Below, in pieces: positions 6,801-7,277 of a stretch of 44,665 bases of DNA. Positions within the stretch are counted from its first letter, which is position 1. Every line of letters starts with the position of its first letter. Made by a program: the position numbers and the translations under genes. Source of the DNA: Candidatus Pacearchaeota archaeon (GTDB lineage Archaea; Nanobdellota; Nanobdellia; Pacearchaeales; GW2011-AR1); assembly GCA_016866975.1 (NCBI GenBank), contig VGKP01000006.1, forward strand, positions 1-44,665, given 5' to 3'. The notes beneath the pieces were generated by a model that saw only the letters and a program-made list of their open reading frames with translations, was not told the DNA's origin and did not search any database.

Positions 6801-6868
6801 TCTGAATGTTGGTGCAGTAATCAGCAGGAAAGGTGAGAATTTATATACTATAAATTGTAAGAGAGATT

Positions 6869-7198
6869 ATATACTTTAGACCAACACTCTGGAAAACACT
6901 TATTTCCGTAGTTTTAGGGCTGATTATTGGACTTTTTATCGAGAGTTCAATAGTTGGTTATTATTATGGTGCTGAACTAGATTTCTCATATAACTTAAAA
7001 CATTGGATTATAAGATTAATTCCAATATTTTTATGTCAAGGAACTTGACTAAAACTCCAGCTTTTAAGCTGGAGTTGTTCCTTGAGCATCCAAAAAACGA
7101 GCGCCTGCAACAAACTGCGGCTTTTAAGCCGCAGTGGCGCATCGTTTTTTTGATTTTATTTTATTTGGAGTTTAATCCAAAGGAAAGATAAAAATTAA
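6869..7198 (+). pseudogene. Disrupted paralogue of the intron-encoded membrane protein
   Basis: Removing 7035-7154 gives (I)YFRPTLWKTLISVV...IPIFLFYFIWSLIQRKDKN* (69 aa), matching MNFKPRIWKTLMSIV...VLFLIYIIWSLIQKKQ. The start codon position is ATA. Confidence 0.85.
7035..7154 (+). mobile_element. 120-nt structured mini-element, copy 1 (probable non-autonomous IS200/IS605 derivative)
   Basis: Inserted 3' of TTTAT with no target duplication; ends in TGAT; two CTTnnAAG-capped hairpins; homologous copy at 34049-34166 with compensatory changes. Confidence 0.85.
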
Positions 7199-7277
7199 TT
7201 CTTGAATCCCAAAAGTCTTCTAGAAATTACTTCTTAATAACACAATACTTTAAATACAATTTTTTTGTGAAAAATAA

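Follow-up and report, generated by a model that had tools for sequence, protein, structure and literature searches.

The segment at 6819-7218, downstream of the rRNA operon of a Pacearchaeota genome, is probably a chromosomal copy of the centre of a group I intron, which spans P6 with the P4 3' strand at one end and R at the other, together with a passenger gene that now seems dead. The intron concerned resides at position 1923 of the 23S rRNA gene in the same operon. Throughout, the window is the whole stretch of DNA analysed, 44,665 nucleotides of contig VGKP01000006.1 (assembly GCA_016866975.1, Candidatus Pacearchaeota archaeon); the genome amounts to 806 kb in 31 contigs, with 39% G+C. The intronic version of the gene and its flanks is called copy 1, and the version outside the rRNA genes copy 2.

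The 1923 intron and the segment downstream of the 23S gene

The window opens with an rRNA operon and contains the following features:

630-2074: 16S rRNA gene, start of the operon
Between 16S and 23S: tRNA-Ala gene
2670-6513: 23S rRNA gene, with two group I introns inside
4557-5098, plus strand: reference intron (source of copy 1), group I, 23S position 1923, with its cargo in P6
4791-5012, plus strand: intronic cargo gene, encoding a 73-aa protein with two hydrophobic helices
About 5730-6225: second 23S group I intron, position 2593
6819-6839, plus strand: 5' arm of copy 2, P4 3' strand (Q, 10/10) and P6 5' strand (one C-to-T change)
6840-6847, plus strand: TATA box of copy 2, TTTATATA, 29 nt 5' of the start position
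6869-7034, plus strand: N-terminal part of the copy 2 cargo, 55 codons and one base, with ATA at the start position
7035-7154, plus strand: IS200/IS605-type mini-element of 120 nt, 3' of TTTAT, ending in TTGAT, with two hairpins
7155-7198, plus strand: C-terminal part of the copy 2 cargo, 14 codons and the stop TAA (7196-7198)
7199-7218, plus strand: 3' arm of copy 2, P6 3' strand (10/11) followed by a decayed R

The archaeal LSU model (cmscan) leaves a 547-nt insert at ~4557-5098, which the mapping made in this analysis places at position 1923 (E. coli numbering). The insert carries all four of the P, Q, R, and S motifs and scores 31 bits against RF00028, over its 3' half only (cmscan). The model is interrupted by ORFs or long loops in both 23S introns, hence their weak scores; in genome G063, a homologue of the 1923 intron that has no cargo reaches 72.8 bits for a gathering score of 50. 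The structural labels used here (P4, P6, R) are taken from the Rfam alignment of this homologue: AATCAGCA is the P4 3' strand (Q), the P6 5' strand comes next, GAATCC is the end of the P6 3' strand, and CAGAGACTA is R. A compensatory change in P6 is found in the intron of G027. By its core motifs and covariance-model score at a known rRNA intron site, the 4557-5098 insert is thus classed as a group I intron, with predicted splicing. Archaeal rRNA introns of types IB4 at LSU/1923 and 1931 and IA3 at LSU/2593 have been described in Woesearchaeota and Pacearchaeota hosts, which covers both insertion sites and both intron types of the window (Nawrocki, Jones and Eddy 2018, PMC6125680). The intronic cargo has its TATA box at 4762-4769, 29 nt 5' of the ATG, and scores 97 bits against the profile of its family (see below). 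A homing endonuclease domain was sought in it, and no Pfam family matched at E<=1.

The first-pass annotation had described an incomplete second copy of this intron cassette behind the 23S gene, and its alignments stand. From Q to the TATA box, 6819-6847 and 4741-4769 are identical at 27 of 29 positions (31 of 36 with seven extra upstream bases), and in both copies Q lies 50 nt, and the TATA box 29 nt, before the start position. After the stop, 7199-7209 matches 5015-5025 at 10 of 11 positions, and the whole of 7199-7218 matches the P6 3' strand and R of the intron at 15 of 20. The ends of the protein are homologous as well, with 24 of 27 nt shared in the C-terminal coding core and 27 of 42 in the N-terminal 14 codons. 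A blastn search of the 806-kb genome with the intron returns only two extra pieces, with E values of 2.1e-7 and 7.6e-10. Both are copy 2, which therefore is neither a chance likeness nor a dispersed repeat.

The arms are intron sequence and not a part of the gene, since cargo-free homologous introns (G063, G297, G277, G173, and G059) possess the same Q, a short P6 hairpin, GAATCC, and R. Furthermore, copy 2 displays the arm variant of the resident intron (AAAGG, GAGAAT), unlike those of other genomes. The upstream flank of copy 2 scores 26 against the intron, to be compared with a maximum of 13 among 55 free family members and with 20 and 29 for true intronic copies. The 5' limit of the similarity is placed at ~6812-6819. 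A further likeness of 6798-6811 to the intron segment preceding Q was discarded: the same bases occur 3' of the small ORF in G008, without a significant cassette relic, and they are probably native.

Copy 2 is not a full intron: it retains Q, the two P6 strands, and the decayed R. The first-pass annotation had listed P, R, and S as missing, which is right for the P4 5' strand (P) and for S, whereas R is decayed and not absent. It had also noted that P6 can still pair. Pairing is possible, but it goes through two G-U wobbles, amounts to -7.2 kcal/mol against -11.4 in the intron, and is equalled by 16% of shuffles, that is, no better than chance. RF00028 has no match at copy 2 at E<=1, a cmscan search over 4400-7600 finding only the two true introns. 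Devoid of P and S, copy 2 is therefore a central segment only and cannot act as a ribozyme or splice.

A congener provides an independent view of the locus. In G006, the next three window genes have homologues in the same order, and upstream of them lies a remnant of the copy 2 gene consisting of its last helix and tail, including copy 2's Lys-to-Arg codon. The P6 3' strand and R follow at 18 of 21 positions, the frame is broken upstream, and the contig ends there. This syntenic remnant, from an independent assembly, makes an assembly artefact less likely and dates the event to before the split of the two species, unless the site was hit twice. An artefact, whether from contigs wrongly joined through the repeated mini-element or from chimerism with the intron, is very improbable on other grounds too. 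Several contigs of the assembly do end within mini-element copies; however, what lies on either side of the element at 7035-7154 adds up to a single family member read in one frame, in a genome that holds only two members. Moreover, the arms are 7-14% diverged from the intron and the interior is unalignable, at odds with a collapsed duplicate. The relics in G006 look too well preserved for neutral DNA at such a species distance, which weighs against the reading of copy 2 as a copied intron centre.

Several observations concern the surroundings. Directly 3' of the 23S gene, a 65-aa ORF (6603-6800) is conserved in 7 of the 17 genomes of the genus (46-76% identity) and has no convincing Pfam match. 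RNase P RNA lies 3' of its homologue in G004, G007, and G014, as well as in G010, where an extra gene intervenes; it is absent there in the window. In other congeners, the place corresponding to copy 2, 3' of the small ORF, is occupied by RNase P RNA. G008 has at this same place a different 110-aa ORF, an orphan among the 301 genomes of the order. A replacement of cargo at this locus was considered and rejected, the flanks being not significant against copy 2 and the intron (p ~0.99 and 0.74 on the 5' side, 0.03 and 0.21 on the 3' side). In G006 (L031, G006:C69, 1856-2865), an inserted nucleotidyltransferase/HEPN-type pair separates the cassette remnant from the counterpart of the window's 7278-7697 gene; G013 has a comparable pair 3' of the small ORF (L142).

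The passenger gene, its mini-element, and the divergence between copies

The first-pass annotation had inferred that cargo can leave the intron with a working promoter. For copy 2 a working promoter is not supported, and neither is a working gene: no canonical start (ATG, GTG, or TTG) occurs anywhere in its frame, 6869-6871 being ATA, and the inserted mini-element adds an in-frame stop (TGA, 7046-7048). Deletion of exactly 7035-7154 joins 6869-7034 and 7155-7198 into an open frame of 69 codons. The joined ORF scores 41.7 bits against positions 3-72 of the family profile (E 6.6e-11, scaled to all 8006 ORFs of the genome) and encodes two hydrophobic stretches. A frame open to this extent arises in just 0.18% of composition-matched shuffles, and the other two frames contain 9 and 4 stops. 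Once the mini-element is removed, copy 2 is thus an end-to-end member of the two-helix family by profile; it is not an intact gene. That the frame stayed open suggests selection until recently. Today the gene looks dead, owing to the ATA start and the in-frame stop brought by the mini-element. The ATA could also be a sequencing error or a population variant.

The 120-nt insertion belongs to an abundant family. The genome contains 48 matches, of which 27 are full-length at 93-99% identity, and copies are present in 13 of the 17 genomes of the genus. Alignment of 21 full copies reveals a conserved unit with a left flank that is mostly TTTAT and a right end TTGAT, and displays neither inverted ends nor a target duplication. 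With about a dozen other genomic copies, the one at 7035-7154 shares 99% identity, and its insertion is therefore recent. A Y1 transposase (PF01797) is encoded by the genome, in full on C10 (194-541) and partially at C6:1-153, the very start of the window's contig, and on C12 (at the contig end); TnpB was searched in the genome and not found. By its hairpins, ends, target pentamer, and available Y1 enzyme, the insertion is classed as an IS200/IS605 mini-element. It resembles PATEs, mini-elements derived from IS200/IS605, in having two subterminal hairpins, no inverted ends, no target duplication, a conserved pentamer on the 5' side of the insertion, and a host genome that encodes a Y1 transposase; it differs from them in that no TnpB was found in this genome.

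Other features of this family were noted. The family breaks the assembly, several contigs beginning or ending inside a copy. Subfamilies show compensatory changes in the stem of the second hairpin. Two copies, C1:46344-46473 and C1:39227-39353, have TTAAAA in place of TTTTAA in both hairpin loops, which gives the impression that the hairpin tops were flipped. The element also has 40 codons open in the frame of its own ATG.

Precise excision is possible for IS200/IS605 elements, and this raises the question of whether the locus still works, either as a 59-aa protein made from a non-canonical start or through precise excision of the mini-element as a reversible switch. The intact frame elsewhere, the length of exactly 120 nt that keeps the frame upon removal, the Y1 transposase of the genome, and the intact BRE-like and TATA signals are all compatible with this. 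It is nonetheless judged quite improbable: archaea do not usually start at ATA, the frame offers no alternative start, no sign of excision was seen, and the truncated product scores only 22.7 bits against the family profile and is deprived of the conserved C-terminal tail.

Returning to the reading of copy 2 as a copied intron centre with its passenger, the latter would be a leaderless gene for a two-helix membrane protein of ~70 residues, looped out of P6. The 5' arm occupies the BRE position, immediately before the TATA box. The promoter, a BRE-like P6 5' strand and a TATA box 29 nt before the start, would be contained in the copied piece and could allow expression at the new site. The neighbouring gene has its TATA box at 7249-7256 and its ATG at 7278; this equal 29-nt spacing identifies the layout as the usual leaderless arrangement of the genome, which is the reason for proposing that the P6-borne promoter may drive the gene. 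Copy 2 would once have been functional; later on, its start position would have become ATA, and the mini-element would have inserted after TTTAT, introducing the stop. Illegitimate recombination, intron-templated break repair, and recombination through the arms are candidate ways by which the central segment may have moved.

The two copies have diverged very unevenly. They are 93% identical from Q to the TATA box, the next 21 nt up to the start position match at only 7 of 21, and the gene interior is 62% identical, against 61 +/- 4 for shuffled sequence. So sharp an unevenness makes a single copying event followed by even neutral decay insufficient without allele swap, gene conversion, or constraint. 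Of these three readings, the preferred one is that the interior of one copy was probably replaced later by recombination within the conserved arms and coding ends. Homogenisation of the ends by gene conversion remains as a second reading, and constraint on the arms of the free copy, for example as promoter elements, as a third. Among the 301 genomes, no intron was found with a cargo allele close to copy 2, the best match being 37% identical. Overall, the difference in the interior would reflect the hypervariable loop of the family, probably with allele replacement in one copy by way of the arms.

Gene conversion may also be invoked for the locus as a whole. An older free family member located 3' of the 23S gene would then have had its ends and some flank overwritten from the intronic paralogue 2 kb upstream. 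The mosaic is of the type expected, with ends and arms 86-93% identical and with spacer and interior saturated; family members do occur as free genes near 23S or stable RNA genes in relatives, ~400 nt after 23S in G133 and, in G004, between RNase P RNA and a tRNA gene, downstream of the same small ORF. However, the G004 gene is placed differently relative to RNase P RNA and is not a clear ortholog. Conversion tracts would also have to leave the homologous coding ends for non-homologous flanks on both sides, and the same arms surround unrelated cargo at non-rRNA loci where there is no paralogue to convert from. This origin is therefore regarded as improbable.

The membrane-protein family and intron-armed cassettes in relatives

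Six-frame searches of relatives return open frames of 60-100 aa for the family of the cargo protein, with an N-terminus MNFKP...K, a C-terminus IWSLIQKK, two hydrophobic helices, and a loop that varies in length and sequence and is often Cys-rich. The profile (A1), searched against 1.84 billion representatives, retrieves 626 clusters with E<=1e-3, of which 58 have E<=1e-10; almost all are 63-90 aa long. Pfam has no family for this membrane protein, the ESM Atlas gives weak unnamed clusters only with the cargo protein, and a word-indexed protein search returns the query alone. The MAGs that encode relatives of the cargo protein are labelled as Woesearchaeota, Pacearchaeota, or Nanoarchaeota. 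Across the family, the ends are conserved and the interior is unalignable, so that this pattern is the rule and not a sign of swapping. The first-pass annotation had taken the unrelated middle of copy 2, between homologous ends, as evidence that alleles were exchanged. This argument fails, since part of that middle is the mini-element and the rest is a loop that is hypervariable family-wide, whether the gene is free or intronic.

Over 301 genomes of the order, the profile detects ~58 distinct members in 41 genomes. About 50 of them are ordinary free genes without an intron-like flank, and just three (those of the window, of G027, a genome of another family, and of G251) reside in a 23S intron with intact Q, P6, and R. 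A tree had been proposed that would mark intronic and free copies. It was built with 61 members; the intronic ones do not form one group, each standing beside a free one, but most of it is unresolved, and the number of captures or escapes is therefore not decidable from it. A third family relic suspected at C5:27744-27842 was unsupported on inspection.

In ten free family genes of different genomes (at L051, L055, L064, L075, L077, L081, L082, L103, and L110), the 12-nt motif ATTTGAAGTCAT is located exactly 48 nt before the ATG and is followed by the TATA box. It is a candidate site of regulation for the family as a whole. In the intronic copy of G251, ATTTGAAGTCAT lies inside the P6 loop. The free gene of G224, from the same genus, has its leader and much of its loop in common with the G251 cargo, and possesses no intron arms. 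This likeness, with ATTTGAAGTCAT enclosed in P6, suggests at least one capture, by an intron, of a chromosomal gene with its promoter included. Of note, free members often adjoin stable RNA genes (5S and tRNA, tRNA, RNase P RNA/tRNA, or ~400 nt after 23S; L019, L025, L051, L055), and this seems to happen more often than by chance. Tandem family pairs are found at L068, L075, L081, L090, and L100, and many loops harbor paired Cys motifs.

The cargos of P6 were surveyed by extracting everything between Q and R from the fetched loci. In the 1923-type intron family, at 16S as well as 23S sites, very different ORFs occur between the same inner stem. In relatives, they include the two-helix family, other membrane proteins, an HTH_3 protein, a LAGLIDADG-type ORF (in the L037 intron, judged by motif only), and several orphans. 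Pfam searches with ten other cargos identify the HTH_3 protein and return nothing for the remaining nine.

Intron arms are also found away from rRNA genes, as the first-pass annotation had suggested looking for: at least ten further genomes carry intron-flanked cargo. Within the genus, the exact 16-mer formed by the P6 3' strand and R occurs at non-rRNA positions in G003:C66, G006:C39, and G013:C4, and with one mismatch away from rRNA in G005:C17. A different ORF precedes it at each of these four loci, and at three of them a TATA box is also preceded by Q and the P6 5' strand, intact or decayed. Outside the genus, intact Q and R surround ORFs of 98 and 104 aa in G101:C2 and G128:C2, respectively. 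Only the 3' arm is found at non-rRNA loci of G094 and G126, and free members of the membrane-protein family with decayed arms are present in G069 and G287. In G128, the 3' arm of the free cassette agrees with the intron variant of its own genome until 23 nt beyond the start of R, where it departs from it, and on the other side similarity begins exactly at Q. No rRNA exon is detected by blastn within ~900 nt of the non-rRNA cassette loci, and RF00028 returns nothing at E<=1 at eight free cassette loci of other genomes. The order thus contains, in genome after genome, cassettes that begin at the P4 3' strand and end shortly after R. The idea of cassettes, advanced in the first-pass annotation, is supported at the level of the population by the varied P6 cargos and the free armed loci, although the swap argument drawn from the window itself does not hold.

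Some of these loci share further traits. The G128 intron (L046) and the cassettes of G003:C66 (L116), G006:C39 (L114), and G128:C2 (L129) have unrelated cargos and a common leader, a hairpin GTTAC...GTAAC followed by AAATAGAAAGATTTAAATA, which looks like a common promoter module. In G005:C17 (L118, minus strand, ~690-1095), a direct repeat of ~40 nt flanks both sides of the free cassette, which consists of a 78-aa ORF with the P6 3' strand and R, and a relative of the mini-element lies just upstream of it.

A more general process can be envisaged, in which the P4 3' strand and the P6 3' strand with R would serve as portable homology arms, and promoter-bearing genes would shuttle between 16S/23S introns and the chromosome, free cassettes acting as a reservoir. 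Such a process would explain the near-perfect arms around unrelated cargo, the ends at Q and just past R, and the like arms with unrelated interiors in the window. It is held to be rather unlikely.

Relation to known introns and cassettes

So far, homing endonucleases are the only genes known to be carried by group I introns of archaeal rRNA. In the present genomes, varied small genes with their own putative promoters are found in these introns, and the same genes exist elsewhere in the chromosome with pieces of ribozyme core attached. If this traffic is real and frequent, rRNA introns would be a route by which the tiny, streamlined genomes of DPANN archaea gain, keep, and exchange small genes, and the conserved ribozyme core would double as a recombination handle. 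The membrane-protein family, with 626 clusters and a putative conserved promoter motif of its own, also offers a concrete uncharacterised object for testing. No description of such intron-armed cassettes was found in the literature searched.

The closest known relatives are the introns of PMC6125680, which share the host group, the insertion sites, and an ORF looped out of P6. The ORFs reported there are LAGLIDADG endonucleases only, in 21 of the 39 introns (PMC6125680). In contrast, the window cargo is a small membrane protein with its own putative promoter, relatives harbor many non-endonuclease ORFs, and pieces of intron with cargo occur outside rRNA. Passengers other than endonucleases exist in group I introns, as exemplified by rps3 in a fungal mitochondrial LSU intron. 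In both cases, a gene unrelated to mobility sits in a peripheral loop and the cargo varies between related introns. The system of the window differs by its archaeal rRNA host, by a putative leaderless promoter overlapping the P6 stem, and by cargo that is also found free with intron-core arms.

Free-standing homing endonuclease genes and decayed remnants of organelle introns are known as well. They resemble the present case in that a family exists inside and outside introns, and in that partial introns persist outside the host gene. In many genomes, however, the free copies described here enclose unrelated cargos in one defined central piece of the intron, which begins at the P4 3' strand and ends a little beyond R; this is not what random decay predicts. 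Finally, integron cassettes are alike in outline only, with diverse small genes, conserved short flanks, and a defined slot. In the present system only the conserved arms, which are ribozyme core, were seen as flanks, the genes have their own putative promoter, and membership in that class is improbable.
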